Positions 18,106 through 32,000 of a stretch of 32,000 bases of DNA are shown piece after piece (within the stretch, counting starts at the first letter, position 1; every line of letters starts with the position of its first letter). The DNA is taken from assembly GCA_000008085.1 (NCBI GenBank), contig AE017199.1, positions 210,001 to 242,000 of the forward strand. Reading direction: 5' to 3'. The notes under the pieces are model-generated. The model was not told the origin of the DNA. It searched no databases and worked only from the letters and a program-made list of their open reading frames with translations. The stretch comes from Nanoarchaeum equitans Kin4-M. Lineage in GTDB: Archaea > Nanobdellota > Nanobdellia > Nanobdellales > Nanoarchaeaceae. The position numbers and the translations under genes were made by a program.

Positions 18106-18646
18106 AGATGTTATAAACGAAGCAAGAGTATACTTTTTTTATAGTACTCTCATTTCCTAAAATATATATACATTTGTTTTCCCTCTTTAATGTGGGAGAA
18201 CCCTTATCTATAATTATATGAATAGTTTTGTTACAATCTATTTTTTCTGTTGGAAATTTCTCGCATTTTTCTAGGCAATAGAATTTTAGATTTTCTAATG
18301 GTATATCATTATAAGCTAAAACTTGCGCCATCTTTATAGCTAAATCGCTTGCCACAATAGTAAAAGCCCCTTTTAGATTAGGGTTAAAATTTATGTGTAT
18401 CTCCCCCTTGAAAAAGTTTCTATCAATATTTATGTTGGGACAATCCAATTCGGTTAATGGGTAATAGATAGAAAAATAGTATTTATTATTGTAATAAACA
18501 TCGTATCCCCCTTTAGAGGGGCAAAACTTATACTCTTTATAATGTATGCAATTATCTTTAGATAAAAATACTAAAACTATACCTAATAGAATTAAACTAA
18601 ATAGCCAAACCTTCTTTCTTAAGTTCTTCATATTTAGAGTCATCAA
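18095..18646 (-). CDS. N-terminally anchored Cys-rich protein (hypothetical)
   Basis: Signal/anchor MKNLRKKVWLFSLILLGIVLVFL, so the likely start is the ATG at 18631 rather than 18646. 8 Cys. Overlaps the rpl24 3' end on the same strand and the rad50 3' end convergently (11 nt). Confidence 0.5.
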   Translation of the reverse strand: MMTLNMKNLRKKVWLFSLILLGIVLVFLSKDNCIHYKEYKFCPSKGGYDVYYNNKYYFSIYYPLTELDCPNINIDRNFFKGEIHINFNPNLKGAFTIVASDLAIKMAQVLAYNDIPLENLKFYCLEKCEKFPTEKIDCNKTIHIIIDKGSPTLKRENKCIYILGNESTIKKVYSCFVYNIFII

Positions 18647-19019
18647 TTTTTAAGGCTTCCCTTCTTTTTTTATCAGATAAATCTAATTTTATTATTGTTA
18701 ACTTAGAGGGATGGAAAGGGTATTGCCTATCAGTATCTAAGCTTAAATAAACCCTATAATATTTAGGATCTATATCGATTACTTGGCCTTCCTTTCCTCT
18801 AAAGTTACCTCTTTCTACTCTAACAACATCTCCAACTTTAATAGGAACATTTCTTATTCCGAGCTTTTCCCTTAATTCTTTAGACAATGGAGAACGCATC
18901 ATCTTTCTTCTTCTATGCAATGGGGCATTAATTATGTATTTCCTTTGCTTTCTGGGTTGTTTAGACCTAACCCAGCTAGGAGACCAATCAGAAGGATTAT
19001 AATTTCTTATTTTAAGCAT
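18597..19019 (-). CDS. rpl24: 50S ribosomal protein L24 (uL24)
   Basis: KQPRKQRKY...APLHRRRK..S.LSKELREK N-terminus and KOW motif (VKVGDVVRVERGNFRGKEGQV). 140 aa. Confidence 0.85.
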   Translation of the reverse strand: MLKIRNYNPSDWSPSWVRSKQPRKQRKYIINAPLHRRRKMMRSPLSKELREKLGIRNVPIKVGDVVRVERGNFRGKEGQVIDIDPKYYRVYLSLDTDRQYPFHPSKLTIIKLDLSDKKRREALKIDDSKYEELKKEGLAI

Positions 19020-19037
19020 TGGGCGTTAAAAATATAT

Positions 19038-19045
19038 AGTTTAAA
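19038..19045 (-). promoter_or_regulatory. TATA box (TTTAAACT on the minus strand) upstream of rpl24
   Basis: Starts 26 nt before the rpl24 ATG at 19019. Confidence 0.45.
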
Positions 19046-19047
19046 AA

Positions 19048-19317
19048 TTATTCTTCCTTTTTAATAGAAACTCTCGCAATAATCATTATATCGCCTATGG
19101 CCCTTACTAAAGTATGGGGTACAATTATACCCTTACCCCTTAAAGCTTCTTTTATTTTTGGGTTTTCTAATCTAACTTGCCACCCATATATTCTGGAATT
19201 GTCTTGTATTAGTGCTTCTTCAACTTTTCCCAAATAAATGCCATCTTCAGTATAAACTTGTTTATCATAAGCTTGGCTAACTCTCATATACCTTTCCATT
19301 AACATAGATTTAAACAA
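19048..19317 (-). CDS. PRC-barrel domain protein (small, hypothetical function)
   Basis: The pattern KQVYTEDGIYLGKVEEALIQ...GWQVRL...GIIVPHTLVRAIGDIMII resembles archaeal PRC-barrel proteins. The track start is a TTG at 19317; the first ATG, at 19305, is more likely. Confidence 0.5.
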   Translation of the reverse strand: MFKSMLMERYMRVSQAYDKQVYTEDGIYLGKVEEALIQDNSRIYGWQVRLENPKIKEALRGKGIIVPHTLVRAIGDIMIIARVSIKKEE

Positions 19318-19334
19318 TGATTTAAAAAATATAG

Positions 19335-19541
19335 ATGTTACATTTTATTGACAAATCCGTAAGACAGCATTTGGGCTATTTTTTAAGATATCTAATAAAA
19401 CTCTTTGGCACACTATTGATAATCTTTTTGCTAGTTTATATGGTATCGAGCAAAGATATAAGGTATTTGGTTTTCTATCTTTATTATTTGGGTGTCCATG
19501 TGGTAGTAAATATTATTCTCTATGAAGAGTTTTTTAAATAA
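19335..19541 (+). CDS. Possible small two-helix membrane protein
   Basis: 68-aa ORF filling an otherwise empty 243-bp gap, with two hydrophobic segments. No well-spaced TATA box at -26, so it may be spurious. Confidence 0.3.
   Translation: MLHFIDKSVRQHLGYFLRYLIKLFGTLLIIFLLVYMVSSKDIRYLVFYLYYLGVHVVVNIILYEEFFK
19533..19540 (+). promoter_or_regulatory. TATA box (TTTAAATA) upstream of the 686-aa surface protein gene
   Basis: Starts 28 nt before the ATG at 19561. Confidence 0.45.
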
Positions 19542-19560
19542 TTAATATAAAATATAGCAA

Positions 19561-21621
19561 ATGAGATGGTTGTCCCTATTGCTAATACCTATAGCTTTGT
19601 CTTTGGTTATTGAAAATAATAGTTGTCTAAAAAATGGTAACCATACTATTTATGTCAAATCCAAATATTTCGATGAAAAAATGAATATTAGTATTGGTGA
19701 TAAAGAGTTTAGCTGCATAAGATCAAAAATAGAAGAAAATTATGTTCTATACAAATGTAATATAAATATAAATTTAAGCGATGGGTTGTATGATCTTAAA
19801 ACTCCCTTAGAGAGTTATACTATATGTATCGATAATCAACCTCCTACAATAGAAATAGGGGGCCAATACATAAATGTTTCTAATAATTATTGTTTCTATG
19901 ATTTCAATCCAAATATAAATGTTAAAGACAATGGTTGCTGTGAGAAAACAGATTTGTATATCTATTATAATGGAGAGCTCGTAAAAGAAATAACCAAACC
20001 TGGTTTCTATATAATAAAAGCTTCTGACAAAGCTGGCAATACAATAGAGCAAAAACTAAACATTTGTTTTCCAGAAACTAATAAGCCAACAATAAAATTA
20101 ATTGATTATAAAGTTGGCACAAACATAAACGCGACATTTTATGTTAAAGACGATAGCTTAATAAAAGAGGTTAGCTATTGTAATATTAATCCAATAAAAG
20201 AGGGTTATATAAATTGTAGTTTACCAAAACAAGAAACTGTAACTATGACTGTAACAGATATTTACAATAATAGTTATAGCGAAACCTTCGTTTTCGATAT
20301 TGAACCCCCCACAATAAAAATAATAGACCCAATTCCAATAGATAATACTATATACCTAAACGCTTCTAAATTGGAAGTAAGTTTATTGGTTTCGCCCGAT
20401 ACTAAAAAATGTTGGTTAGGCAATCAAGAATTGCCTATAGTAAATAACATTGTAAAAGCAATGTTTAGCGATAGCGGCGATTATACTATTGTTTGTGAAG
20501 ATGAAAAAGGAAACAAAGCTCAAAAAACTTTACATGTTATAGTTGATACAATTCCCCCAGAATTAAACATAATAGATTATGGCTATAATGTTGATGACAA
20601 AGGAGTTTACGCATATATTAGATATACAATAAGCCCCGATGCGTATGTAAAAGTATATAAAAATGGAGTATACTTACAAAACTCTTATAGTGGTATAATA
20701 AAGGATTATAATGTTTTTGTTGGGCAAAAATATGTTTATACTTTAGAGCCAATAGATTATGCTAACAACAAAGGAGAATCAAAAGAAGTAGTTATTTATA
20801 TAAAAAGCGATAAAAAATGTAAATTGGATTTCAAAATTTTGCCAAAATATAAATATCATTTATCTAAAAATGTAAAACTATTAATAGAAACGGAACCAAA
20901 AGCTTTTGTTACAGTAACCAACAATAATAATGTTGTATGCATAGGCAATGCTAATGAAGCTGGTACGTATTTATGTAATGTATCTTTAACAAATGGAGAA
21001 AACAAAATAGTTATTAGCTCTATTGACCCTACAGGAGACAAAGCTGAAAAAACTATTGTTTTATACAAAGACGATTTAATAATATATTTGCCCTCTATAA
21101 CATCATTTGAAGGGAAAGCCTTAATAGTATATGATAACAAAATTGAAGAAGAAAGAAGTTCAATAAACTTCTTTGGATTTTATACTAACAATGTTAAGGT
21201 TGACGTCTATGCATCAAACAAATTAGTTTGTTCTAACTACCAAAAACCATTATGTGAAAAAAGAAATAACATATATTTTATAGCGAATACATTATCGGCA
21301 TTGGCAACAAAATACAAAACAGACCAAATAAAAATAAAAGCCCAATTTGGCGATTTAAATAGAGAGATAACTGTGGATTTAAAGAGAGAAAGCGTATCCC
21401 TAGGAAAATACTCTATCGCTCTCGGAGGGGCGCTATTGCCATTCTTTAGACAAAGCAGCGAGAACATATTATTATTCGCTCTAAGCGCCATAATAGTATT
21501 TGGAACCGCTTTAGTCGATTTAAGGAGAATATCCATAGAATTACCTAAAGCAAGAATAGAGTTTAACCTTATAGACAAAATCAAAAATTTATTATCAAAA
21601 ATTAGGAAAGACTTGAAATGA
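19561..21621 (+). CDS. Exported Cys-rich protein with four tandem Ig-like modules and a C-terminal anchor (hypothetical surface protein)
   Basis: Signal peptide MRWLSLLLIPIALSLV. Roughly 80-aa modules each end in D-x-x-(G/N)-N followed by (P/K)P(T/E)-I/L (aa 94, 175, 249, 332). Hydrophobic segment near aa 640-660. Many N-x-S/T sites. Confidence 0.6.
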   Translation: MRWLSLLLIPIALSLVIENNSCLKNGNHTIYVKSKYFDEKMNISIGDKEFSCIRSKIEENYVLYKCNININLSDGLYDLKTPLESYTICIDNQPPTIEIGGQYINVSNNYCFYDFNPNINVKDNGCCEKTDLYIYYNGELVKEITKPGFYIIKASDKAGNTIEQKLNICFPETNKPTIKLIDYKVGTNINATFYVKDDSLIKEVSYCNINPIKEGYINCSLPKQETVTMTVTDIYNNSYSETFVFDIEPPTIKIIDPIPIDNTIYLNASKLEVSLLVSPDTKKCWLGNQELPIVNNIVKAMFSDSGDYTIVCEDEKGNKAQKTLHVIVDTIPPELNIIDYGYNVDDKGVYAYIRYTISPDAYVKVYKNGVYLQNSYSGIIKDYNVFVGQKYVYTLEPIDYANNKGESKEVVIYIKSDKKCKLDFKILPKYKYHLSKNVKLLIETEPKAFVTVTNNNNVVCIGNANEAGTYLCNVSLTNGENKIVISSIDPTGDKAEKTIVLYKDDLIIYLPSITSFEGKALIVYDNKIEEERSSINFFGFYTNNVKVDVYASNKLVCSNYQKPLCEKRNNIYFIANTLSALATKYKTDQIKIKAQFGDLNREITVDLKRESVSLGKYSIALGGALLPFFRQSSENILLFALSAIIVFGTALVDLRRISIELPKARIEFNLIDKIKNLLSKIRKDLK

Positions 21622-22079
21622 ACCTAAGAATTCCTTGGAAAGAAGTATATTATTTGGGCTATAACATGGGTAACTATATAAAAATTAGTGAGCCCGAATT
21701 ATTGTTTGTTCTAAGAAACAAACCTCAGATTAAAGATAGATTAAAATTGGACGAAAAAACTATAATAAAAGAAGGAGTAAAAAAATATAAAAATTTTTGG
21801 GAAATTTATTACACCGTAAAAGATTTGATTTTGAGAGGTTATAGAGTTAGATTTGACGGGTTTTTTATAGAGTTATATGAAAAAGGTATAATCCCTGGAA
21901 CAATAGAGCAAGATTATTTGGTTTATCCCGTTAGTGGTGAAATAAGAATGACTTGGGGAGAATTATTAGATATTTATAATAAAGCAATTGCAAGAAAATC
22001 AAAATTTATGTTAGCAATAGTGGATAGCGAAGGAGATGTCACTTATTACGAATTCCGAAAGCTCCGTTCCAATAAATAG
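21618..22079 (+). CDS. endA: tRNA-splicing endonuclease family (EndA) subunit, probably the non-catalytic/structural type
   Basis: The C-terminal domain aligns by eye with M. jannaschii EndA: VKDLILRGYRVR / YKDLRTRGYIVK, IELYEKG / FRLYERG, DYLVYPV / VYLVKVF, FMLAIVDSEGDVTYYEF / LLIAIVDADGDIVYYNM. The positions of catalytic His and Lys appear substituted (Glu, Ser). The ATG overlaps the upstream stop (ATGA). Confidence 0.7.
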   Translation: MNLRIPWKEVYYLGYNMGNYIKISEPELLFVLRNKPQIKDRLKLDEKTIIKEGVKKYKNFWEIYYTVKDLILRGYRVRFDGFFIELYEKGIIPGTIEQDYLVYPVSGEIRMTWGELLDIYNKAIARKSKFMLAIVDSEGDVTYYEFRKLRSNK

Positions 22080-22435
22080 ATTCCTTCTAGTATTGTGGCA
22101 ATTTTATCTAAAGGCAAACCCAAATAAAAATATGCTGCAGCGAGAATATAAATTATTCCTGTAATTCTGGCCAATAAATTGTTATATTCTAGCAAACCTA
22201 AACCGAAAAAGAAAAACGCTATAACATACAAAGATAATATAACAAAATCCCCTATGTTATATGGCACTAAATAATATTGGGGTAATAGCAATAACATTAT
22301 TGTACCTATATACAACCAAAAGTTTTTGTCTTTCATTGCTATATAAAGCCATACAGCTAGGGCTAAACTATTATTTATTGGTAAAACCAAAGACAAAATA
22401 TCTGTTATGCCTGCTAACAAATATAGATATTGCAT
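22046..22435 (-). CDS. Multi-pass membrane protein (hypothetical)
   Basis: 129 aa, about 4 hydrophobic helices. Its 3' end overlaps endA convergently by 34 nt. Divergent from rpl29. Confidence 0.5.
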   Translation of the reverse strand: MQYLYLLAGITDILSLVLPINNSLALAVWLYIAMKDKNFWLYIGTIMLLLLPQYYLVPYNIGDFVILSLYVIAFFFFGLGLLEYNNLLARITGIIYILAAAYFYLGLPLDKIATILEGIYLLERSFRNS

Positions 22436-22441
22436 AAAATT

Positions 22442-22449
22442 TTTAAACT
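22442..22449 (+). promoter_or_regulatory. TATA box (TTTAAACT) upstream of rpl29
   Basis: Starts 26 nt before the GTG at 22468, which supports that start over the track's TTG at 22450. A second, opposite-strand TTATAAAT (22458-22465) faces the membrane protein gene. Confidence 0.5.
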
Positions 22450-22467
22450 TTGTTTCTATTTATAAGC

Positions 22468-22659
22468 GTGAAAGCTAAAGATCTTAGACAAAAGAGTGTG
22501 CAAGAGTTAAAAGAATTATTGGCCAAATTAAGAGAGGAACTAAGAGTATTAAACACTTTATATATAAATAAAAGACCTTTTAACTATGGTAGGAGAAGAC
22601 AAATAAAAAGAGATATAGCTAGGATTTTAACTGTTCTAAGAGAAAGAAATGAAGCTTAA
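22468..22659 (+). CDS. rpl29: 50S ribosomal protein L29 (uL29)
   Basis: [24 protein letters not shown] is the canonical L29 helix. Start set at the GTG at 22468 on the basis of promoter spacing. Confidence 0.8.
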
Positions 22660-22966
22660 GAAAATAAGCGGAGGTTTTGACGAGTTATTAGAGGAATTAG
22701 AATCGCAGATAGAACAGGAAACTAGAAAAATCAAAGTAGTATTAGATGAAAGAAAGAAGAAAAAGAGAACCCCAAGTAAAGTTACTATAATTTATGGGAT
22801 TCCTGAGGAAGAAGCAGAGGAAGTAGTAAAATATTTAAAGAAAAAAATAGGGACTGGAGGAACATACAAAAATGGCGCTATAGAGCTTAGGGGAGATGTT
22901 AGGAAAAAAATTAAGCCAATCCTTATTGAATTGGGCTATAGGGAAGACCAGATTGAGATAGAATAG
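22649..22966 (+). CDS. sui1: Translation initiation factor aSUI1 (eIF1 homolog)
   Basis: SUI1 domain: KVTIIYGI...[35 protein letters not shown]. 105 aa. Overlaps rpl29 by 11 nt. Confidence 0.85.
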
Positions 22967-24173
22967 AATCAATTATTTCGAAACTCTTCTCTATGGATCT
23001 ATATTCGTAATAGTCTTGTTTAATAAATTCTTTTTCCACCAATTCTGCAAACTTTAAATAGGCTTTATCCTCTTTTGATAGAGAGTCTTCCCCAACTATT
23101 GTTGCTATGTCTCTAGCTTCTAAGCCTTTAGCATAGCTTTTTATTAAGATATCTGCATATTTTTTATGTTTTTTAGACATACCATTTTTAGCTAATCTAG
23201 ATAGGCTTTTTAACAAATCTATTGGAGGATAAATATTTTTAGAATGCAAATCTTGAGATAAAACATATTGCCCCTCTGTAATATAACCGGTTAAATCTGG
23301 CACTACATGGGTTATATCATTACCAGGCATAGTTAGCATAGGTATTAATGTTATAGAGCCCTTTGATGTTAAACCAGATCTTTCATATATAGAGGCTAAA
23401 TCTGTATACAAATAAGCAGGGTATCCTCTCCTAGAGGGGATCTCTTTTCTTAAGGTTGAAATCTCTCTTAAAGCATCGGCATAATTAGTCATATCTAACA
23501 TTAAAACCAAAACATCTCTATTTTTTTCAAAAGCCAGATATTCTGCTAAAGTTAGTGCAACTCTTGGAGTGTAAATTTTTTCTATAGGAGAGCTATCCGC
23601 TTTAGAAATAAATATGGCGCTATTCATTATAGCTTTGGTATTTATGAATTCGTCGATAAACATTTTATATATATCGGAAGGCACACCTATTGCTGCAAAT
23701 ATAATTGTTTTGTCTTTAGCTACATTTCTAGCAATTTGGAGGGCTAGCCTTTCCATAGGCAAACCTGGGGGGGAAAATATTGCTATTTTCTGCCCTTTTA
23801 ATAATGGGTGCGCAACATCTATTGAGGAAATACCTGTATACAATATTTCGTTTGGAACCTTTCTAGCATAGGGGTTTATGGCTAAACCATTAATGTCTCT
23901 ATAATCCTCAGGATAAGGTTTTGGTCCTTTTATTGGCTCTCCAAATCCATTGAATATGCCCCCAATATAATCTTCGCTAACAGCTATTTTGTATGTGTTT
24001 CCTTGTCTATTAATTTGCTTTATTTCTCCTGTATAATAGTCAAACAATAAAGCTAAAGCTTTATTTTCATAAGCAGCAATAACTATGGCTTTAGTTTCTT
24101 CCAAATCTATTACTTCTCCGAGCATTGGGTTTTCTAATTCTACTGCTATTAGTGGGGGTTTAATGGAAGGCAT
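22923..24173 (-). CDS. atpB: A-type (A1Ao/V-type) ATP synthase subunit B
   Basis: Non-catalytic B-subunit pattern: GISSIDVAHPLLKGQKIAIFSPPGLPMERLALQIARN, VLVLMLDMTNYADALREIS, RRGYPAYLYTDLASIYERSG. 416 aa. No other ATPase genes adjacent. Confidence 0.88.
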   Translation of the reverse strand: MPSIKPPLIAVELENPMLGEVIDLEETKAIVIAAYENKALALLFDYYTGEIKQINRQGNTYKIAVSEDYIGGIFNGFGEPIKGPKPYPEDYRDINGLAINPYARKVPNEILYTGISSIDVAHPLLKGQKIAIFSPPGLPMERLALQIARNVAKDKTIIFAAIGVPSDIYKMFIDEFINTKAIMNSAIFISKADSSPIEKIYTPRVALTLAEYLAFEKNRDVLVLMLDMTNYADALREISTLRKEIPSRRGYPAYLYTDLASIYERSGLTSKGSITLIPMLTMPGNDITHVVPDLTGYITEGQYVLSQDLHSKNIYPPIDLLKSLSRLAKNGMSKKHKKYADILIKSYAKGLEARDIATIVGEDSLSKEDKAYLKFAELVEKEFIKQDYYEYRSIEKSFEIIDSILSQSGLPYSPIQ

Positions 24174-24192
24174 TTTGGTTATTTATAGTTTG

Positions 24193-24200
24193 GAGTTAAA
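24193..24200 (-). promoter_or_regulatory. TATA-like box (TTTAACTC on the minus strand) upstream of atpB
   Basis: Starts 27 nt before the atpB ATG at 24173. Confidence 0.4.
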
Positions 24201-24205
24201 TAATT

Positions 24206-24443
24206 TTATTGCGGGGCCCAAATAGCCTCTATGGCAATATCAGAACTGTCTACTATTTTGTTCTTATTCATGTCAATGAAGTAGCCTGGTTTGTAGTGTA
24301 TTATATAATAATTATGAGTTGTTGTTTTAAAGGATGAGTCTACAAGTACTGTGGATCCAGTATCATAAATTATAATATAGCAAACCTGCTTTTTTTGGAA
24401 TACGTAATATTATATATTTATTTGTTTTACAAACAACACTCAT
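24206..24443 (-). pseudogene. Small ORF interrupted by a frameshift at an A7/T7 homopolymer (78 aa if restored)
   Basis: The minus-strand ATG at 24443 has CTATAAGA 27 nt upstream and opens a 26-codon frame. A different frame is stop-free for 67 codons (24409..24209) but has no start. Removing one T from the T7 run at 24390-24396 fuses them into MSVVCKTNKYIILRIPKK-QVCYIIIYDTGSTVLV...EAIWAPQ. Confidence 0.4.
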
Positions 24444-24472
24444 TATCCAACCTTCCCAATGCTCTTATAGTG

Positions 24473-27400
24473 TTACCATTCAACAAAGCGGGTTTCTTCG
24501 CTTTTACTTTTACATTGATAGATACTGCTAGCAATGCAGAGATTATTAACGTTAACTAGTATATAATAATTATAGCCATCGTTTGTTATTATAGGGGAAG
24601 CTTCTTCTCCATCGCTTAATACTACGTTCTCTTTTGGAGCTTTTATTATTGTATATTTATTACTCCCAATAGACACGTTACAAATTAGATAAGGATCGTT
24701 AACTGTAGTAGGAGAACCCGAACCAATTAATTTAACATTTCCTTTATTGTCTATTAGCATTGCAACCCAATTTGTTGAAATAGTTATCCCTCTATAGTTG
24801 GCGCCATCACTACTAGTTTTACATTCTATTTTATTAAAACCTGGAATGAATATTATATGTTTATTATCTGTAGTGTTAACCAAAAATATGTCTGCTGACG
24901 CTGGTTCTTTATATGTATTATGTGCACCATCTTTGTAATAAGAAGCGCTATCATATTTTCCGTATATGGCATAGTTATTTCCTTCTTTAACGATACAAAG
25001 TTTATCAACAGGATTACAATCACCAGGGTTTATTATTTTGTTGTTAGATATAAATATGTTAGCCTCATACTTAAAGCCACCATTAGTGTAGTCATAACAA
25101 TAGGCGTTCTTATAGGAGCATGCATACTGTGAGGGTTTTTGCTTTTCTACATAATTGCCGCCATTATCTTTAATTATCCATTTATCTATTAAATCGATAA
25201 ATACATTATACATTTTACAACTTCCTCCCTCATTTGCAACACACTGCCTGCCCGTACTGTAGTGTTGTACTTCTCCATTTAAAACAGTTACATTTACATA
25301 ATAATATTTGCTATCTGACCCAGCATAAAAAGTGCTGTATTTTCTATACCAGTTATTGTTATCTATAGTGATGGGAGAAGGATGGTCTATCTTTATAGTC
25401 TTTCCAGATCCAGTTTTTGAAACGTATAGTTCCCATCTCTTATTATTTGGATCAATAATTTTTGCTACAGCAACAACTTTACCAATATTTGCTCCACTAT
25501 AAGTAAACTCTGTATCATATAGATCGGGATCAATTCCGCTATTTCCCCAACTAGATCCAGATAGTTTAGAAACTTTTAAAGCACCTCTGTCGCCAATCTC
25601 GCCTTCAACTATCTTATATAAAGTTCCCCCAGTATTATAATAACAAGCTTCCGTAGTACATAATAATTCTCCATCTTCAATAGAGACACTTTCTCCATAA
25701 CTAATATTAACATATTCTATATTATTGTCACTTTTAAGTTTTATAGCCCGTACCGCACGGAAAGTATTGGGGACTGCATGTTCCATTATCCCATTAATAG
25801 AGAAAGAAAAGTTATTTAACACGGGAGCTATAGGTGTTTTCACAGCTTCCCTAAATATCAAATTCCAAAATATTGGCACATTTTGTTGTTTAACTATTGT
25901 ACCATCTTTCATAGTTACAACCTTTAATCCTTCACCATTCTCATTATATATAGCATACCCTGCCTTTGCAAATGGATTTTCAAATACGCATCCAAATAAG
26001 CCCATAATATCTTTAATTTCGTTCTCAGCTTTTATTTCTTTATTGGATACCTCTATAGTAAAGCAATTAGTCTTACTTTTTTCAAAGTTTGGGCTGCTAT
26101 AATAGTTATACGGTTGATAGCAAGCAATTCTATTGCCATAGGCAACAACTTTATTTTCCATATCGTATTCCACATATGGGTACTTACTTATATATATCTT
26201 AGAACCATCGTCATATAACCATACTTTTTTGTTGCCTATTTCCAATAATTTCCATGTATTTGCTGCTAAGTTAATAGAATAAACTTTATATTTTGGAGTT
26301 GGTAGGGATTCTTTTTTTCCACATCCATCAGATAATTTGGGAGTTTTGCTATCACTTATAGCGAAATAAATAGTATTAGAAGAATCTTTAATTTTTATTA
26401 TTCTCAAGTTAGGTATTCCGTTTCCTAGGTTTATTGATATTTTTTCATATGACCCATCGGGATTGCTAATGTTTATATTACAATTAATATTATTAACTTT
26501 TATAGAAGTTTTTCCATTGGTTATTTTGTAGCCTCCATTAGTTGGGTATATAGTTATATATGGATCTATGTCTATAGAAGTTTTATCACACTCAAGCTTT
26601 GCCTTGTTAGGAATACTCTTGTATATTATTGTATAGGTTTTTTTATTTCCATTAATTTGCATAGTAACAAACCCTTCATGAGAATCGCATTTGCCTTTAA
26701 CTAATTTATCATCGAGTGATAGAACTCTTATATCTTTAATGGTTCCACTACTACTATCTACTCCATTGACATAGCAGCTATATGCATAAGAAGTTGGAGT
26801 AACTGTTACTACTTTATTTTCAGTTTCTAATTTCTCTCCTAACATTTTACTTAATATATCTTTCCATCCTTCCAATAGTTTTTTGCAAATATTATCGCTC
26901 CAATTTATATGGATTTCTCCATTAAAGGGTATTAAGAAGGTTTTCGATGGGGTTGCTATGTATATAACTTTCTCTTTAGTCTTATAACTTTCGTTGCAAA
27001 ATATATCTGTTATAGCATACCATCTTTTTATTGATAGAGAGATATTTTCTTCATTACCAAAAATTTCTATTAAGCATTTCCCTATATTTTCCATTACATT
27101 TTCACTATTTGCAGAGATGCTATCAATAGCACATTCGCCCTCCCCCTCAATATTAACACTTGACATCTTTCCTATCAATTTTTGTTGTAGTTTGCTCATT
27201 ATTGTTGGTATGGCATTTGCTGTAACATAAGCGATAATGGGTTTACATGGTTCTTTATTTATTGTGCAGATGTTTATTCTTTTTATATTAGAGTTGGGAG
27301 TGTAAAATAATAATAGGGATCTCAAAATTGGAAAGAATGGCAATTGGTCCAAAAATGCACCAGCAACATATAAGGAATTAAAATTAAATTGATTAGTGCC

Positions 27401-30400
27401 ATTTACATAATTAAAAACATCTTTTGGTAATAACCCAACACCATAACTAACATTAATTTTTATGCTTTTTATTTCCTCTATAGCTTTACTAATATTGTTT
27501 AGCATAATATTATCGATGTCGATTTCATTATATCGATTTATTGCGAGCACTTGAGAGAAATCTACTTTATCACCATTAGCAGTTTCTCCTAAAAATGGAA
27601 ATATTATATTTTCATTTGTTCCAGAACTGGAATCTATAGGTTCTTTTTTGTATTCCTTTCCTGCTAAACTATAAAATAGAGCCTTAAACTCTTTTTTGAA
27701 TGTATCTAATATTAAACCTTTGTCAAAAACAAATTGGTTATTATTGTATATAAATTGATAACCATCTAATATTTCCAAAAGGTTTTTACTCCCTTTCGCT
27801 ATCTTATTGCAGCTATCAACATAGAAATATGCATCTTCAACAATTCTTTTTGGTTGTACCGTTCCTGTTGGGGTTGATAGTACCCCAAAAACCGAACTTA
27901 AAGTGTTTATTATGGTATCAACAGCTTTTCCAACATTTTGTATGGCTTTTTCTAATTGTTTGCTACTCTCTTTACATGTTTTATACCTAGCATATATAGA
28001 GTTAATTATTAATTCTACTTTATTGTCAAACAATGTTAAATAATCATCGACCAACCCAATTAAATCGTTTAGCACAAGCTGGTATGTTCTTAATAATAAC
28101 TCTTCGAACTTTTTATATTCTGCATTAAGAATGGAAGCCAGATTTTCGATACCCTTATTTATATATTCGGTGCTTCCTTTTATAAATTCTTTGTATAGGT
28201 TTATTGTATTGTCCAGGTCTTTTTTGAGAGTACTTTCTTGCTCTTCAATAATTTTTTTGACTTCTTTTACTTTGCTTATTAATTGTTCTAACTGGGCTTT
28301 TTTGTCTGGATAAGAATCTGGGTCGATTCCTTCTATAATAGAAAGATAGCCTTTAAGTTTTGCTAATGCTATCTGGGCATTGGCCGCTTTTGATAGCTTA
28401 GTATCAATACATTCTAATAGAATATTGTATGAAACTTTATTAGTTAGTCTATTGATTATCGCTTGTTCAACAGAGCTTGGTATTAAAGCAATGGCTTTTA
28501 ATGTTTTATAATCTATTAGTTTTATTTCTCCAATTGTACTAGGCAATACCAAAGAGTTAATAGAAGAAACAACCGAACTAAAGTAATTTGTTAATGATGA
28601 GGTGACTTGCGATAAACTATACGCCAAATTATATAAAGAATTGGTTAGTAAAGTGTTTATTATAGGTTCTAATTTGTTATCTAGACTAGACAAACCCATC
28701 TCTAATTGGGATTTTACCATTTCTCTTATGTATTTTACTTCGTTAGAAGAATATATCGACAAAGGTGTTAGGACACTTAATGCTATATAATTTTGTAGCT
28801 CTTGTTGGTATAGTCTTTCCAAATCTATATTAGCTGTTAAAAACATTAATATATCAACCTCGCCCAAGCAATGGGATATACTATTCGATACCCAATTTTT
28901 AATGAGTTCTTTTTTATTATTGTACTGGACAAAGTCATCAATGTTTAATTCATTAATAATTTCATTAACAATATCATTAACAACTTTGTATGCTGCATAA
29001 TGTATTAAATAGTTACTAAGAGTGGCATAACTATTATTTCGTATATTAGAAAGAAGAACGTTTCTAGCATTTCTAGAGAGAAGGTTATTTCTAACATTTA
29101 TTATAACGCTATCACATATAGGAGGAGGCATTGCTTTATAGCATTGATATCTAGTATGCCACATATACCATGTTACACAATTAGTAATGCCATACCATAA
29201 GAAGGATTGGTCTATATCTCCATATAAATAAGCCAAAAATTTCGATATAAAATAGGCCTTGTCTATATTGTTTTCTCCAAAATAGTAAGTTGTTTGGTTG
29301 GCACACTCTTTTAATAATTGTTCATACCTTGGATCATTTGGGTTTGTTTTAGTTAATTCTATACAGCTCTCTAGAGATATATTCATATCAGACAAACCAA
29401 TTATTTTTTGTATTTCATCAATGTTTATTTGCTTATATAATTCGTGCAATACCCTTCTTTTTATTTTAGGTAAAACTTTCTTTAATGCAGGACAAGAATA
29501 ATTAGATATATTCAATGATTCTTTTAATGCTTTTACCGCTTCATCGATTTTTTCTTTAATGAAAGTTAATTGATTTATGCCTACATGGGATAACTCGTTT
29601 TCCAGCCTTTCTATATTTGTTATATTGGCTCTTAATTCTGTAAATGCTTTAAGCTTTAAGGTTTTCCCACTTGAAGTTGCCTCTAAAATAAACCAAGCCT
29701 CGCTTTCTGTTATGTTCCATATGCCCTTTCTCGCTATATATTGGGCTTTAAATATGTTTGAATAGTTGTTAGGTATTAAAGAACCTATAGAAAGGTTTAC
29801 GATTCCATTATCTGGATTCGTATCATAACTAATATTTAAAATACCTATGATATGGGGATTTTCAATTCTTTCTCCATTAGCTTCTAACGATATATTGTAT
29901 ACTGGGTATTTAAAGGATCTTGTCGAGATTTGAGCAATACAATTGTTTATGGTTATGTTTGTACTATACAAAGAAGCAGAAGACCCATCGAATAAAGTAG
30001 CATTTACCCTTAATATTATATTGTTATTATTAAGAAGCTCTGCTATTGATTTTGTATCTAATATAGGATTAAACATATTTATCCAATTGTCTGTAGTAGT
30101 GGTAGAGATATCGGAGATTGTATTATTCTCGCATGTATAATTTAGGTAAACCATGTCCTTATTATTGTATTTAAATGTGACAGTGTAGTTATTCTCCACA
30201 TAGCTTATTGATATATTAAAAGCGCTAATATGCCAATCTAGAGAAGTTTTTGCTGTTATATTAATAGTTTCTAACTTACATGGCACAAGCAAACCATCTT
30301 TGGTATATGTTATATCAGTTATATTTGTATCACATTTAAATTTATCTATAAACAAAGTGCTTTTCAGTTTAACCAAATCTTCATACAATTTGCTGCTATT

Positions 30401-31066
30401 ATCTATTAATTGTTGATAATTTTTAGATAGTTTGACTAATTCTTCTGTTCTCTTTTTTTCCCATTCTATAGATTTACTAATGCCTTTCGATACACAATCG
30501 ATAGCGCTTTCTATTGCTGATACGATGCTGTCCGTTGATGCCATGGTATTCCCAGCAACAGAACAATCAACGGATGGAATATTCCCTTCTATGTTAATTA
30601 ATTTCCCTAAAGAACCCAAATTATTAAGTCTTTCTCTTATTTTTCTTTGGGTTTCATTTAAATAATCTCTTATTTCCCTAACTGGGGATAAAACTAAATT
30701 TGCTATCCTATATTTTAATGCTAAAGCCTTTTGTTCGCCTTGCGATAGTATATCACATACACTAGACAAAAACTGTGAAACCCCTTTTAATGGGTTATTT
30801 GATTCTATAAAGGATTCTACCAATTTAGTATTTGATACAACTCCTGATTTTTTCAAGAAGTTTAGTAAATAATCCAAATCTTTGAATTTATCATCTTTTT
30901 TCGGCAATTCACAAAAACTTTTATAGGTTTGTAATGCTATATGTTCTTCTTCTCCCGTAGCAGTATTTTTTACTTTCCAAACACAACAGCCATAGCTATC
31001 GGAAATAGCAATAGGAATAGAATTTAGCAATAATAAACTTAATAGTAGTGTAAACCTTGTTTTCAC
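24473..31066 (-). CDS. Giant exported protein, 2197 aa, no recognisable domain (hypothetical surface/adhesion protein)
   Basis: GTG start with TTAAAAGC 26 nt upstream. Signal peptide MKTRFTLLLSLLLLNSIPIAIS. An uninterrupted 6.6-kb frame in AT-rich DNA. N-terminal part is mixed helical and N-x-S/T-rich beta, the middle (aa ~500-1130) is long and helical/heptad-like, and the C-terminal ~1000 aa are Y/N/G/K/C-rich and beta-like. No C-terminal anchor. Confidence 0.8.
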   Translation of the reverse strand: MKTRFTLLLSLLLLNSIPIAISDSYGCCVWKVKNTATGEEEHIALQTYKSFCELPKKDDKFKDLDYLLNFLKKSGVVSNTKLVESFIESNNPLKGVSQFLSSVCDILSQGEQKALALKYRIANLVLSPVREIRDYLNETQRKIRERLNNLGSLGKLINIEGNIPSVDCSVAGNTMASTDSIVSAIESAIDCVSKGISKSIEWEKKRTEELVKLSKNYQQLIDNSSKLYEDLVKLKSTLFIDKFKCDTNITDITYTKDGLLVPCKLETINITAKTSLDWHISAFNISISYVENNYTVTFKYNNKDMVYLNYTCENNTISDISTTTTDNWINMFNPILDTKSIAELLNNNNIILRVNATLFDGSSASLYSTNITINNCIAQISTRSFKYPVYNISLEANGERIENPHIIGILNISYDTNPDNGIVNLSIGSLIPNNYSNIFKAQYIARKGIWNITESEAWFILEATSSGKTLKLKAFTELRANITNIERLENELSHVGINQLTFIKEKIDEAVKALKESLNISNYSCPALKKVLPKIKRRVLHELYKQINIDEIQKIIGLSDMNISLESCIELTKTNPNDPRYEQLLKECANQTTYYFGENNIDKAYFISKFLAYLYGDIDQSFLWYGITNCVTWYMWHTRYQCYKAMPPPICDSVIINVRNNLLSRNARNVLLSNIRNNSYATLSNYLIHYAAYKVVNDIVNEIINELNIDDFVQYNNKKELIKNWVSNSISHCLGEVDILMFLTANIDLERLYQQELQNYIALSVLTPLSIYSSNEVKYIREMVKSQLEMGLSSLDNKLEPIINTLLTNSLYNLAYSLSQVTSSLTNYFSSVVSSINSLVLPSTIGEIKLIDYKTLKAIALIPSSVEQAIINRLTNKVSYNILLECIDTKLSKAANAQIALAKLKGYLSIIEGIDPDSYPDKKAQLEQLISKVKEVKKIIEEQESTLKKDLDNTINLYKEFIKGSTEYINKGIENLASILNAEYKKFEELLLRTYQLVLNDLIGLVDDYLTLFDNKVELIINSIYARYKTCKESSKQLEKAIQNVGKAVDTIINTLSSVFGVLSTPTGTVQPKRIVEDAYFYVDSCNKIAKGSKNLLEILDGYQFIYNNNQFVFDKGLILDTFKKEFKALFYSLAGKEYKKEPIDSSSGTNENIIFPFLGETANGDKVDFSQVLAINRYNEIDIDNIMLNNISKAIEEIKSIKINVSYGVGLLPKDVFNYVNGTNQFNFNSLYVAGAFLDQLPFFPILRSLLLFYTPNSNIKRINICTINKEPCKPIIAYVTANAIPTIMSKLQQKLIGKMSSVNIEGEGECAIDSISANSENVMENIGKCLIEIFGNEENISLSIKRWYAITDIFCNESYKTKEKVIYIATPSKTFLIPFNGEIHINWSDNICKKLLEGWKDILSKMLGEKLETENKVVTVTPTSYAYSCYVNGVDSSSGTIKDIRVLSLDDKLVKGKCDSHEGFVTMQINGNKKTYTIIYKSIPNKAKLECDKTSIDIDPYITIYPTNGGYKITNGKTSIKVNNINCNINISNPDGSYEKISINLGNGIPNLRIIKIKDSSNTIYFAISDSKTPKLSDGCGKKESLPTPKYKVYSINLAANTWKLLEIGNKKVWLYDDGSKIYISKYPYVEYDMENKVVAYGNRIACYQPYNYYSSPNFEKSKTNCFTIEVSNKEIKAENEIKDIMGLFGCVFENPFAKAGYAIYNENGEGLKVVTMKDGTIVKQQNVPIFWNLIFREAVKTPIAPVLNNFSFSINGIMEHAVPNTFRAVRAIKLKSDNNIEYVNISYGESVSIEDGELLCTTEACYYNTGGTLYKIVEGEIGDRGALKVSKLSGSSWGNSGIDPDLYDTEFTYSGANIGKVVAVAKIIDPNNKRWELYVSKTGSGKTIKIDHPSPITIDNNNWYRKYSTFYAGSDSKYYYVNVTVLNGEVQHYSTGRQCVANEGGSCKMYNVFIDLIDKWIIKDNGGNYVEKQKPSQYACSYKNAYCYDYTNGGFKYEANIFISNNKIINPGDCNPVDKLCIVKEGNNYAIYGKYDSASYYKDGAHNTYKEPASADIFLVNTTDNKHIIFIPGFNKIECKTSSDGANYRGITISTNWVAMLIDNKGNVKLIGSGSPTTVNDPYLICNVSIGSNKYTIIKAPKENVVLSDGEEASPIITNDGYNYYILVNVNNLCIASSIYQCKSKSEETRFVEW

Positions 31067-31084
31067 TAATATATTGGATAGATA

Positions 31085-31092
31085 GCTTTTAA
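31085..31092 (-). promoter_or_regulatory. TATA-like box (TTAAAAGC on the minus strand) upstream of the giant ORF
   Basis: Starts 26 nt before the GTG at 31066, in the 38-bp gap after the 195-aa ORF. Confidence 0.4.
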
Positions 31093-31104
31093 TCTCTTTT
31101 GTCG

Positions 31105-31692
31105 CTACGACAAAGTGAATAAAACTTTAATTTTCCCTATGTGGCTTTTTAAATATATGCTTTCACTATAAATGGGCCAAGTTTTATAACCATTTTTGTA
31201 TTGGTAACCCCATACAGAGCCATTTAGATAATGTATTTTTATATAATCGTCATAAACTAAAGCACAACCATTGTTTGCATACCATTTATTGTCTATTATA
31301 TCCCCAGAAGTCGCATTTATAAAGTGTGCTTCTATTATTGTCTCTGTATTAGTGCATACTTTTTTGTAATTTCCTATATCGAAATATAGGCATTTATAAC
31401 ATGTAGGGCTTTTACCTGTGGGGACTTCTTTTATCTCATAATAAACATAAATAGTATTATTAAGGCATTGGATTGTAAAGCTATTATTAGTTAAATTGTT
31501 ATAAATGCTATCCCAATTAAAATTGTTATTGCTTAGAAATTTGTATAAACAATAGCGATAAACCATTTTATTGGCAAAATCGTAGCTTTCCAAATAGGCA
31601 CTATAGATATCGTTATAAATATAATGAGTATAGATCATTGAAAGCATAGTGATAAACAAAGAAGAAGAGACTAATAGATCAAACCAGTTCAT
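31105..31692 (-). CDS. N-terminally anchored Cys-containing protein (hypothetical), immediately upstream of the giant ORF
   Basis: N-terminal hydrophobic helix LLVSSSLFITMLSMIY, 6 Cys, Y/N-rich. The ATG overlaps the upstream ORF stop (ATGA). Confidence 0.55.
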   Translation of the reverse strand: MNWFDLLVSSSLFITMLSMIYTHYIYNDIYSAYLESYDFANKMVYRYCLYKFLSNNNFNWDSIYNNLTNNSFTIQCLNNTIYVYYEIKEVPTGKSPTCYKCLYFDIGNYKKVCTNTETIIEAHFINATSGDIIDNKWYANNGCALVYDDYIKIHYLNGSVWGYQYKNGYKTWPIYSESIYLKSHIGKIKVLFTLS

Positions 31693-32000
31693 GGCTTAAG
31701 TATTGTAGTACAAGTGCTTTCTCCGAAATCAGTTTTTATTTTTGCGGTAATTGGTTTGTTAACTTCTAAAGGCAATACTACTTTTCCTGCTATTGCATTA
31801 TAGATTTTATTCCCTATGGTTACTGGGCCTTGGTATGGGTTACCATCAACATATAATGATAATACCATTGTAGATTTAGATTGTTGTGACAGAGTACATT
31901 TTATCGTTGGGGGCAATACAAATAAAGTATAAGCGGTAATACCAATCAAAAACATTATTGATGCATGTTTTATTGTGTCTGCTATGTTACCCCCTACAAC
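31689..32000 (-). CDS. Small exported/anchored protein, probably 5'-truncated by the window edge
   Basis: The track starts at the ATG at 31955, but the frame is stop-free to nt 32000 (VVGGNIADTIKHASI-MFLIGITAYTLFVLPP...). No TATA-like box lies at -26 of that ATG. A hydrophobic segment is followed by a beta-like domain. Confidence 0.45.
   Translation of the reverse strand, partial: VVGGNIADTIKHASIMFLIGITAYTLFVLPPTIKCTLSQQSKSTMVLSLYVDGNPYQGPVTIGNKIYNAIAGKVVLPLEVNKPITAKIKTDFGESTCTTILKP

Follow-up and report, generated by a model that had tools for sequence, protein, structure and literature searches.

A giant exported orphan protein beside type IV filament platform genes in Nanoarchaeum equitans

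Results

Gene layout at the locus

The window, that is the whole stretch of 32,000 nucleotides analysed here, belongs to Nanoarchaeum equitans Kin4-M, which has a genome of 490,885 bp. Exact look-up of its open reading frames returned NEQ265, NEQ266, NEQ263 and NEQ261, and positions 22000-32000 are identical to positions 4028-14028 of locus L001. Three co-oriented genes lie at the end of the window (Table 1): NEQ267, of which the window includes the C-terminal 103 residues, the remainder lying beyond its end together with NEQ268; NEQ266; and, after a gap of 38 bp, NEQ265. A preliminary description had counted four consecutive genes for exported or anchored products. We retain three, because the last, a 21-aa ORF at 24206..24271, has no annotation, no family match and no box-A-like hexamer; the -27 box ascribed to it was not recovered, as no TTTAAA-like hexamer (one mismatch or fewer) was found at -36..-20. 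The spacer around this rejected ORF gave a fold z of -0.68 and no Rfam matches above chance. The ORF at the window edge does carry the hydrophobic segment that had been noted, which is a last transmembrane helix, but its product is not simply exported, being the C-terminus of a polytopic platform protein.

The TATA-like box reported in the gap before the giant gene is the hexamer ATTAAA, a single-mismatch variant of TTTAAA, the box A consensus of N. equitans (PMC3491384). An exact TTTAAA is present at -26..-28 in 8 of the 27 window genes, compared with 1.6% of random positions, and 18 of 27 have a hexamer with up to one mismatch at the same place, compared with 15%. ATTAAA is likely to be the promoter of a leaderless NEQ265 transcript, and NEQ265 would then be transcribed from a box-A promoter of its own. 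No promoter box was found for NEQ266, whose ATG overlaps the NEQ267 stop as ATGA, as initially described, and which is translationally coupled to NEQ267.

Table 1. Features of the NEQ267-NEQ265 region, in window coordinates
Feature	Position	Strand	Description
NEQ267, 3' end	31689..32000	-	last transmembrane helix IMFLIGITAYTLFVLP and extracytoplasmic tail of ~70 aa with 2 Cys
NEQ266, 195 aa	31105..31692	-	candidate leaderless pilin-like subunit, N-terminal hydrophobic segment
Box-A-like hexamer ATTAAA	31088..31093	-	27 nt upstream of the NEQ265 GTG
NEQ265, 2197 aa, GTG start	24473..31066	-	predicted Sec-type exported, Cys-rich orphan
NEQ265 residues 1-24, signal peptide	30995..31066	-	MKTRFTLLLSLLLLNSIPIAIS, cleavage before DS; n, h and c regions MKTR, FTLLLSLLLL and NSIPIAIS; Ala at -3, Ser at -1
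NEQ265 residues 25-235	30362..30994	-	predicted helical (low-confidence AF2); heptad in 179-235
NEQ265 residues 236-453	29708..30361	-	non-helical (AF2), N-x-S/T-rich
NEQ265 residues 454-1063	27878..29707	-	predicted helical, including one long helix 923-1059
NEQ265 residues 1064-2197	24476..27877	-	mixed alpha/beta to ~1400, then mostly beta hairpins (AF2, secondary structure only)
Spacer of 299 bp, NEQ265 to atpB (NEQ263)	24174..24472		contains the 21-aa ORF

NEQ268 and NEQ267 as a type IV filament platform

NEQ267 is a 346-aa protein of the T2SSF/FlaJ-TadC type and the second of two platform genes, both of which carry PF00482 (T2SSF; L001 2421-3302 and 3299-4339). NEQ268 matches the N-terminal half of ArlJ/FlaJ (5e-24) and NEQ267 the C-terminal half (2e-11); the pair also matches BasF, UpsF and GspF, with NEQ268 reaching 3.5e-12 against the bindosome platform BasF; arCOG01811/01812 label both genes 'TadC'. 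This homology marks NEQ268 and NEQ267 as the membrane platform, of the two-gene FlaJ/TadC (T2SSF) kind, of a type IV filament machine. The locus is a variant of a known machine type, and the earlier proposal of an undescribed, self-contained system is not upheld. In the proteome table, normalised spectra were 30/94 for NEQ267 and 84/147 for NEQ268.

No secretion ATPase lies inside the locus. The genome encodes NEQ169 (618 aa, arCOG01817, expressed) and a second ATPase of clade 4, and the ATPases adjoining homologous platform pairs in distant loci measure 536-624 aa. Assembly would be powered by an unlinked VirB11/FlaI-type ATPase, with NEQ169 as the candidate. As for prepilin processing, 'two nanoarchaea' are given as exceptions without an A24 prepilin peptidase (PMC4858521), and the sole prepilin peptidase entry in the examined part of the proteome table belongs to the host (Iho_1405).

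NEQ266 is a conserved candidate pilin with no leader

Homologs of NEQ266 follow the platform pair directly in two relatives, L003 and L005 (47% and 45% identity). This platform-platform-NEQ266 module is kept in both despite unrelated neighbours, no gene apart from NEQ266 staying with the pair. In the alignment of the three lineages, all six Cys noted in the preliminary description are invariant and the N-terminus M-x-W-F-[DE]-L-L-[VI]-S-[SA]-S-L-F... is kept. In N. equitans, L003 and L005 an in-frame stop is located 2-4 codons upstream of the ATG, which excludes a longer N-terminus.

A class III signal peptide consists of a short basic leader with [GAS] at -1 that is cleaved by an A24 peptidase, and the mature type IV pilin N-terminus comprises ~20 hydrophobic residues, often with an acidic position 5. 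NEQ266 has no class III signal peptide, its MNWFD start containing no basic residue. The N-terminus MNWFDLLVSSSLF is hydrophobic from the start with Asp/Glu at position 5, as in pilins; its hydrophobicity is moderate, the segment being Ser-rich with a maximum Kyte-Doolittle mean of 1.49. The protein was detected with 9 spectra in the proteome table. No known pilin showed significant similarity to it, and a profile match to the filament subunit 8rey_M, a 'flagellin-like protein', was non-significant (E 0.59).

Five distant loci (L006-L010) present the order ATPase-T2SSF-T2SSF, after which come small proteins whose N-termini are class III-like. In L006, L007 and L008 the gene directly after the platform encodes ...[KR][GS][QN]-I-x-[IV]-D-[FL]..., and NEQ266 (MNWFDLL) has a similar motif, as does a later gene of L009; the common motif was defined after the sequences had been seen. 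The motif proteins of L006-L009 carry basic, prepilin-type leaders, unlike NEQ266, whose N-terminus aligns with the post-leader segment of those of L006, L007 and L008, placing D5 on their invariant D. Profile-profile comparison with this post-platform family covered only the 20 N-terminal residues (probability 2.6%), and a five-sequence profile ranked NEQ266 first among 138 ORFs (E 0.014) without recovering the L003 and L005 homologs. The positional counterparts score 25.3, 23.5 and 15.6 bits against DUF7287 (PF23958), for which the Pfam gathering cut-off is 27 bits, L007 and L008 falling just below it. Like DUF7287 proteins, NEQ266 sits right after the platform genes, has a similar size (144-250 aa), contains Cys and shows the N-terminal motif x-x-[IVF]-D-[FL]-[ILV]-x-S. 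Unlike them, NEQ266 and its two close homologs lack a basic leader and miss the model (no match at E <= 1 for NEQ266 and L003_203), and similarity past the first ~20 residues of NEQ266 is not demonstrable.

From these comparisons we infer that NEQ266 is the pilin-like subunit of the filament and is synthesised with no leader. The translated protein would begin where its distant counterparts would after cutting by prepilin peptidase, and carries Asp/Glu as its fifth residue. Such a leaderless start fits a genome reported to be without an A24 peptidase.

NEQ265 is an expressed and exported giant orphan

NEQ265 accounts for 1.3% of the genome and is intact in independent assemblies. Checking published proteomes, as the preliminary description had advised, showed that the protein is detected (56 and 266 spectra; normalised 7.4/37.8), at a level ~200-fold below that of the S-layer protein NEQ300 (normalised 7948/7265). 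In agreement with the initial reading of a classical signal peptide, the N-terminus shows n, h and c regions, which predicts export by Sec, and NEQ265 is marked 'SigP Yes' with no TMD in a published table (PMC3149612 supplement). The [GAS]-Q class III motif carried by the pilin-like genes of related loci is absent from this signal peptide. A single hydrophobic window (residues 3-23) was detected, with no other hydrophobic segment or anchor, as had been described.

The protein is also Cys- and sequon-rich, as first noted: it contains 46 Cys (2.1%, versus 0.86% in the other window ORFs), and residues 25-520 hold 16 N-x-S/T sequons, versus 8.4 +/- 2.5 expected from a shuffle test. Residues 236-453 are probably glycosylated, judging from their sequon content. 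The region 1064-2197 is rich in Tyr, Asn and Gly and has close Cys pairs (e.g. 1267/1274, 1942/1950, 1983/1990, 2017/2024 and 2177/2185). Three composition zones had been proposed. In low-confidence AF2 models the zoning is rougher: residues 25-235 are predicted to be helical, 236-453 to be non-helical, 454-1100 to be helical, 1064-1400 to be mixed and ~1400-2197 to be mostly beta hairpins. Both structure predictions have a pLDDT of 33-36 (32.7 for the model of the C-terminal region), helix 923-1059 being the only part that reaches 55-61. Of the ~600-aa heptad-like middle only helix 923-1059 shows a single-register heptad (z 2.5), whereas no significant pattern was found in 454-923; a stronger heptad is present in 179-235 (z 4.7, 0/500 shuffles).

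No match to NEQ265 was found in Pfam or NCBIfam (E <= 1 / 0.1, beyond noise), PHROG, PADLOC or PDB sequences, and neither a PilY/DUF2341 or related adhesin domain nor an Ig-like domain was detected in Pfam/NCBIfam and PDB sequence searches, in line with the lack of an assignable motif in the preliminary description. A phmmer search of residues 1064-2197 against 1.84 billion representatives returned only a fragment of the protein itself. Its orphan status was confirmed in that no homologs beyond its own fragments were found, even in metagenomes holding NEQ267 relatives. The synteny comparison that had been suggested gave a split outcome: the NEQ268-NEQ267-NEQ266 module is kept in L003 and L005, but the giant gene is absent after the NEQ266 homolog in L003, the one relative whose contig continues, where a convergent FKBP gene directly follows the three-gene module. 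The argument that such a size in a minimised genome implies strong selection is weakened, because L003, the closest sampled relative, keeps the module without the giant gene and no NEQ265 homolog is detectable.

In sum, NEQ265 is genuine: an orphan protein that is expressed and exported. Since the S-layer protein is NEQ300 and not NEQ265, a specialised surface or host-contact role for NEQ265 stays plausible.

Discussion

Layouts of two platform proteins, a pilin and often a large adhesin have been described for archaea (Makarova, Koonin & Albers 2016, clades 1, 2 and 4A/B; Sivabalasarma & Albers 2026 preprint, system 1 and subsystem 4A), the latter authors placing such a filament type in 'some Nanoarchaeota'. 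What the N. equitans locus has in common with these is a pair of T2SSF/TadC genes, downstream of which come first a small protein rich in Cys whose N-terminus is hydrophobic and then a large one with a signal peptide; the genome also encodes a VirB11-family ATPase. It departs from them in that NEQ266 and NEQ265 have no class III signal peptide, the ATPase is unlinked and the A24 peptidase is reported missing; moreover, no PilY/DUF2341 or Ig-like domain could be detected in NEQ265, which is not conserved in the closest relative. We give roughly even chances to the reading that this is the downstream end of an archaeal T4P/Tad-like type IV filament locus, with NEQ266 as a pilin-like subunit and NEQ265 as an adhesin-like accessory. 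NEQ265 would be exported by Sec, then disulfide-bonded outside the cell and glycosylated in residues ~236-453, and would serve in low copy number as an adhesin-like or host-contact protein specific to its lineage. It may appear at the surface together with the NEQ266 filament or be aided by it through the S-layer, as has been suggested for the large signal-peptide 'adhesin' genes of other archaeal type IV filament loci. What ties NEQ265 to the filament system is its adjacency.

That adjacency might be an accident in a scrambled genome, NEQ265 being an independent, lineage-specific surface or host-contact protein and the functional unit consisting of NEQ268, NEQ267 and NEQ266 only. We consider this a realistic possibility, though a doubtful one. 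Pointing to it are the box-A-like hexamer and 38-bp gap of NEQ265, as opposed to the boxless NEQ266; the convergent FKBP gene that ends the module in L003; the Sec-type rather than class III N-terminus; the lack of homologs even where NEQ267 relatives occur; and the description of N. equitans as having no conserved operons (PMC3491384). On the other hand, two of the five distant loci have a large Pfam-less protein downstream of the platform pair (1334 aa in L006 and 768 aa in L010), although both of these carry the class III motif that NEQ265 lacks and show no similarity to it; large signal-peptide 'adhesins' recur in archaeal type IV filament loci; and in normalised counts NEQ265 falls in the same order of magnitude as NEQ267 and NEQ268.

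The machine could instead work like a T2SS: the platform, an ATPase and a short NEQ266 pseudopilus would form a piston, and this would push NEQ265, a folded, disulfide-bonded protein of 250 kDa, out of the pseudo-periplasm and through the S-layer. The classical signal peptide and many Cys recall bacterial T2SS cargo, if only by analogy, and NEQ265 has no anchor; the single pilin-like gene could provide the one pseudopilin-like subunit, the platform is of the T2SSF family as in GspE-GspF-pseudopilin systems, and NEQ268 matches BasF. The BasF system is named for the assembly of the bindosome, a surface protein complex, and not for a pilus. Nothing counts directly against this arrangement, but NEQ265 is missing beside the module in L003, N. 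equitans has neither an outer membrane nor a secretin, and we know of no archaeal T2SS-like secretion of cargo across an S-layer; we regard this arrangement as improbable. Still harder to credit is a structural envelope protein, either a second S-layer or an S-layer-associated component. Export, the sequon excess and the predicted beta-rich region would suit it, and some type IV filament loci come with S-layer-like proteins, but the S-layer consists of NEQ300 and its companion NEQ236 (normalised >7000 and >1000, against 7-38 for NEQ265), and NEQ265 has no C-terminal anchor and no similarity to S-layer families. Co-orientation, tight spacing and the membrane-bound or exported nature of every product would speak for a new self-contained surface system of four genes built around the giant protein; with two genes of a known machine family (T2SSF), a fourth gene reduced to an unsupported 21-aa ORF and a giant protein not conserved with the others in L003, we see almost no room for it.

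Among proteins of other reduced-genome ectosymbionts, NEQ265 resembles the SPEARE proteins of Nanohaloarchaeota in being very large, expressed and predicted to be mostly extracytoplasmic. SPEARE proteins are proposed to mediate host contact and were reported as not found in Nanoarchaeota (PMC6642349); they have protease, laminin-G, toxin and restriction-endonuclease domains and a transmembrane anchor, whereas NEQ265 has no recognisable domain or anchor. Within the same phylum, the Nanobdellota attachment organelle comprises a cone, a portal and a ~6.6-nm intercellular filament, and 'tethers' and a stalk are seen where N. equitans contacts its host. One would expect a filament machine and a giant surface protein to operate at such structures, and the link is hypothetical.

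Taking the type IV filament reading further, NEQ266 could be a naturally leaderless type IV pilin, assembled by a machine without a prepilin peptidase, that builds the tethers or the intercellular filament where N. equitans and Ignicoccus are in contact, as a counterpart of the Nanobdellota attachment-organelle filament, with NEQ265 as its lineage-specific host-recognition or membrane-breaching component. We think this unlikely as a whole. If true, the machine would dispense with a component that, to our knowledge, is otherwise counted as core to all type IV filament systems.

A two-gene platform and its small coupled partner

The window comes from Nanoarchaeum equitans Kin4-M, and the ORF open at its edge encodes the C-terminal end of NEQ267. 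On L001, a contig over the same N. equitans region that is identical to the window over 10 kb, the gene order is NEQ268 (293 aa), NEQ267 (346 aa), NEQ266 and NEQ265, with 4-nt overlaps joining the first three genes. Both NEQ268 and NEQ267 contain a T2SSF domain; the archaellum/pilus platform protein ArlJ/FlaJ matches NEQ268 with its N-terminal half (5e-24) and NEQ267 with its C-terminal half (2e-11), and the arCOG label of both proteins is TadC. The preliminary description had read the edge ORF, with its hydrophobic segment, as an exported or anchored product of an undescribed system. It does encode part of a membrane protein, but one that is a T2SSF platform rather than a stand-alone exported product, and these domain, ArlJ/FlaJ and arCOG assignments place the pair in type IV filament machinery. 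Two platform genes were found in every relative examined (L003, L005 and L006–L010), so that the arrangement is ancestral to the type and not an N. equitans split gene. Beyond its last transmembrane helix, NEQ267 has an extracytoplasmic tail of ~70 aa. The motif G-x-x-T-C-x-x-[IV]-L is conserved close to its C-terminus, and another Cys directly follows the helix; this tail domain is also present in L003 and L005.

Close relatives' loci are found in a MAG (L003, GCA_054016815.1) and a JGI metagenome contig (L005), whose NEQ267 homologs are 63% and 57% identical, respectively. Both have the order T2SSF, T2SSF, NEQ266 homolog (47% and 45% identical) among surrounding genes wholly unlike those of N. 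equitans, and the conserved unit is therefore the three-gene module NEQ268–NEQ267–NEQ266. In L003 the position after the NEQ266 homolog is taken by a convergent FKBP gene, so that no giant gene is found there; the L005 contig stops within the NEQ266 homolog. Synteny thus holds for the platform pair and NEQ266, but not for NEQ265, which is absent beside the module in L003.

Platform proteins of the more distant loci L006–L010 are 26–33% identical to NEQ267. L006 has an ATPase, the T2SSF pair and proteins of 250, 354 and 1334 aa, in this order; in L007, L008 and L009 an ATPase and the pair are followed by several small proteins, and in L010 the pair is followed by proteins of 191 and 768 aa. Most of the flanking proteins, small and large alike, begin in the manner of class III (prepilin) signal peptides, with a basic leader and [GAS]-Q followed by ~20 hydrophobic residues. 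The L008 contig also carries a second filament locus, in which an ATPase of 546 aa, with N-terminal 4Fe-4S ferredoxin-type domains fused to T2SSE, precedes another T2SSF pair.

Coordinates of the features discussed, in the window unless another contig is named
Feature	Coordinates	Strand	Remark
NEQ265 (2197 aa, Q74MS4)	24473..31066	-	Exact look-up
NEQ266 (195 aa)	31105..31692	-	Exact look-up
NEQ263, ATPase subunit B	22923..24173	-	Exact look-up
NEQ261	21618..22079	+	Exact look-up
NEQ267 extracytoplasmic tail	31689-31900	-
Spacer	24174-24472		299 bp
Exact TTTAAA in spacer	24326-24331	both	Palindromic
C/D-box-like Rfam match	24236-24310	-	12.5 bits, E 8.3
686-aa protein	19561-21621	+	17 Cys
183-aa protein	18095-18646	-	8 Cys
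216-aa protein	8546-9196	-	10 Cys
tRNA-Ile, anticodon TAT	15624-15717	+	94 nt
tRNA-Arg(GCG)	10491-10566		76 nt
380-aa ORF	14014-15156	+
Overlapping-start gene	6750-7412		No box
Second filament locus	18642-21200		L008
DUF7287-like protein	6006-6722		L009
Insertion and N-run within NEQ265	10001-13598		L011

NEQ266 as a leaderless candidate subunit

NEQ266 is translationally coupled, with a hydrophobic N-terminus and six conserved Cys. Its family has three members (N. equitans, L003 and L005), which share the invariant N-terminus M-x-W-F-[DE]-L-L-[VI]-S-[SA]-S-L-F and all six Cys. In each of them an in-frame stop lies 2–4 codons 5' of the ATG, and no leader can therefore be encoded.

The genes directly 3' of the second platform gene in L006, L007 and L008 start with MKKAFKNRKSQ-IDVDLLFS, MFKMKGQ-INIDFVVS and MIWKKKEKRGN-INIDFIMS. 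In a profile–profile alignment, Asp5 of NEQ266 (MNWFDLLVS) falls on the invariant Asp of this post-platform family. Assuming cleavage after G/S, the usual site in such signals, the L006, L007 and L008 proteins would have the invariant Asp as mature residue 5. When 2,073 ORF/start combinations from the examined loci were checked, only these platform-adjacent genes had the six-residue motif within the first 25 residues. Because the motif had been defined on the very sequences that carry it, this result shows specificity and not significance. The L007 and L008 proteins score 25.3 and 23.5 bits against Pfam DUF7287, just under the cut-off of 27, and NEQ266 has no match to this family. A profile from five distant proteins ranked NEQ266 first among 138 ORFs (E 0.014) and did not recover the NEQ266 homologs of L003 and L005. 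Homology between NEQ266 and the post-platform proteins is therefore suggested by position and N-terminal motif, and is not statistically established. In L009, an in-frame stop lies 4 codons before the start of a DUF7287-like protein (MTVQIDFILAVGLFF...), which is also almost without a leader; near-leaderless N-termini may thus occur in the DUF7287-like family beyond the Nanoarchaeum lineage.

The absence of a prepilin peptidase from N. equitans is a literature statement: a census of archaeal type IV pili found no pilins in nanoarchaea and the peptidase missing (PMC4858521), and the available part of a proteome table lists the peptidase for the host only (PMC3149612). Our literature search found no paper using "leaderless pilin" or DUF7287.

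NEQ265 is an intact, expressed orphan

The NEQ265 ORF is uninterrupted in the GenBank genome and in independent assemblies from public sequencing runs. An apparent truncated relative of 628 aa was rejected: its contig (L011, JGI 3300014779) belongs to N. equitans, and the gene on it carries a 1-nt insertion (GATATAGA[T]CC) and an N-run. The single inserted base and the N-run identify the short product as an assembly artefact rather than decay in a relative, and account for the calling of NEQ265 as pieces of 628, 170 and 368 aa. The 628-aa piece is also the 90% cluster representative, which hides full-length NEQ265 from cluster-level searches. In the published whole-cell proteome, NEQ265 was represented by 56 spectra in co-culture (normalised 7.4) and by 266 in purified N. 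equitans (normalised 37.8), as compared with 0 and 9 for NEQ266 and normalised values of 7948 and 7265 for the S-layer protein NEQ300 (PMC3149612). The gene is therefore real and expressed, at a level roughly 200-fold below that of the S-layer protein.

Searching residues 1000–2197 with phmmer against 1.84 billion representative proteins gave two matches, a self fragment of 95 aa and P0027; the latter protein is repetitive, and we rejected its match, spanning 60 residues, as chance or compositional. For residues 1–1000, a word-index search returned the self fragment P0002 only, and recovery of this fragment served as positive control. The word-index search with the whole protein gave no match and also missed its own cluster representative, making that negative unreliable. 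Likewise, genome and metagenome peptide-pattern scans with NEQ265 or the NEQ266 alignment found no match and carry little weight, since the positive controls (the source genome and the L005 contig) were missed too. Pfam, NCBIfam, PHROGs, PADLOC, PDB sequences and phage tblastn gave noise-level matches only (DUF1221, IS607, tape measure, LmuB and MERS HR1, all dismissed), in agreement with the earlier statement that no motif could be assigned. NEQ265 appears to be lineage-specific or diverged past recognition.

The signal peptide of the preliminary description was borne out: the N-terminus (MKTR-FTLLLSLLLL-NSIPIAIS/DS) has the n-h-c layout of a Sec signal peptide and contains the sole hydrophobic window of the protein. 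There are 46 Cys (2.1%, versus 0.86% in the other window ORFs, many of which have none), several paired 4–8 residues apart in the C-terminal half. An excess of N-x-S/T is confined to the N-terminal quarter (16 observed versus 8.4 ± 2.5 expected). We found neither internal repeats nor paralogs within the window. Single-sequence AF2 predictions of the two halves had mean pLDDT of 32.7 and 35.9, unusable as 3D models, and were read, with caution, for secondary structure only. At this low pLDDT, residues 25–235 are predicted as helical, 236–453 (the sequon-rich zone) as non-helical and 454–1100 as helical, followed by an alpha/beta region passing into beta hairpins. One long helix (923–1059) is the sole part with pLDDT of 55–61. 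In a single-register test, heptads were significant at 179–235 (z 4.7), weakly so at 923–1059 (z 2.5) and not significant at 454–923. Based on these two analyses, the three composition zones and heptad-like stalk proposed earlier are only partly borne out: the zones match in part and heptads are found at the first two positions, but not over 454–923.

Promoter boxes and the spacer behind NEQ265

The TATA-like box proposed 5' of the giant gene is present as the box-A-like hexamer ATTAAA at -27. Across all 27 window ORFs of at least 100 aa (window GC ~30%), exact TTTAAA was found at -26 to -28 from the start codon in 8 (random, 1.6%), and in 18 when up to one mismatch was allowed (random, 15%). 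These counts suggest that many mRNAs in the window are leaderless or nearly so at the 5' end, and that most genes are transcribed from a promoter of their own. No box-A-like hexamer lies upstream of NEQ266, and genes with overlapping starts lack the box. The small downstream ORF described as a gene with a -27 box did not hold up, being 21 aa long, with no TTTAAA-like box (up to one mismatch) at -36 to -20 and no other support.

The spacer between NEQ265 and NEQ263, among the longest gaps in this dense window, contains an exact TTTAAA and a far sub-threshold C/D-box-like match. It gave no Rfam match above chance and a fold z of -0.68, and no ncRNA was found in it. The spacer could serve as a long leader of atpB or as a terminator region, or could encode a small RNA missing from the annotation.

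Is NEQ265 part of the filament machine?

The established parts of the locus are a two-gene T2SSF platform, a conserved coupled small protein and an expressed orphan with a signal peptide. That NEQ265 is functionally linked to the machine seems to us possible rather than probable. Large Pfam-less proteins also lie 3' of the platform pair in L006 and L010, and large, Cys-rich "adhesin or minor pilin" proteins with signal peptides have been described in archaeal type IV filament loci; however, NEQ265 shows no similarity to the L006 and L010 proteins and is missing next to the L003 module. Its N-terminus is of Sec rather than class III type, and it has its own box-A-like hexamer, whereas NEQ266 has none. 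A role as a giant pilin is unlikely, as the h-region is short, contains Pro, is followed by G-C-C and is without the [GAS]-Q motif of the related loci.

In the mechanism we propose, NEQ266 would be inserted with its N-terminal segment in the membrane, and the platform would pull it out into a short filament, with energy from an unlinked VirB11-type ATPase. The candidate is NEQ169 (618 aa, expressed), since ATPases adjoining homologous platforms are 536–624 aa long. A peptidase step would be unneeded because NEQ266 would be made in "mature" form. NEQ265 would be exported by Sec, oxidised outside the cell and glycosylated at about residues 236–453, and could act as a low-copy adhesin or host-contact protein, either alone or with the filament presenting it or carrying it through the S-layer.

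Other genes in the window

About 3 kb from the cluster and on the opposite strand, the Pfam-less 686-aa protein is apparently a second surface protein. It has a signal peptide (MRWLSLLLIPIALSLV) and, at the C-terminus, a hydrophobic anchor; its sequon density is 1.46 per 100 aa, and repeated "PPT/EPPTI...IID" motifs hint at tandem Ig-like domains. Two other small N-anchored, very Cys-rich proteins of 183 aa (MKNLRKKVWLFSLILLGIVLVFL...) and 216 aa have no similarity to NEQ266 and could be other envelope or pilin-like components. The 380-aa ORF has the top sequon density in the window (3.7 per 100 aa) and overlaps the preceding 751-aa ORF by 115 nt; its start may be mis-set. A tRNA-Arg was also found, and the tRNA-Ile is well over the usual tRNA length, suggesting an intron.

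Discussion

In our view this is a type IV filament locus that lacks a peptidase and has a leaderless candidate subunit and, at its end, an orphan giant surface protein; as a variant of such loci, it is not a categorically new system. The nearest known counterparts are archaeal type IV filament loci with two platform genes and DUF7287-type post-platform proteins, while the likeness to bacterial type II secretion is by analogy only. Giant DPANN surface proteins such as SPEARE also belong among these counterparts, but SPEARE proteins have domains that can be recognised, and Nanoarchaeota were reported not to contain them (PMC6642349).

Cryo-tomography of Nanobdellota has described an attachment organelle with a cone, a portal and a ~6.6-nm filament, and imaging of the N. 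equitans contact site has described "tethers" and a ~30-nm stalk, the constituent proteins being left unidentified in these papers. NEQ268/267, NEQ266 and NEQ265 are obvious candidates for such proteins, as a hypothesis only. For the question of how hosts are bound, recognised and opened by Nanoarchaeota, the locus offers a short candidate list: the NEQ268/267 platform, NEQ266 as a leaderless conserved candidate subunit, and NEQ265 as an orphan surface protein of 250 kDa that is expressed. Should NEQ266 prove to be a filament subunit, its assembly independent of a peptidase would loosen what counts as the minimal core of type IV filament machines; otherwise, the three-gene module would still mark a conserved membrane function in one of the smallest cellular genomes.
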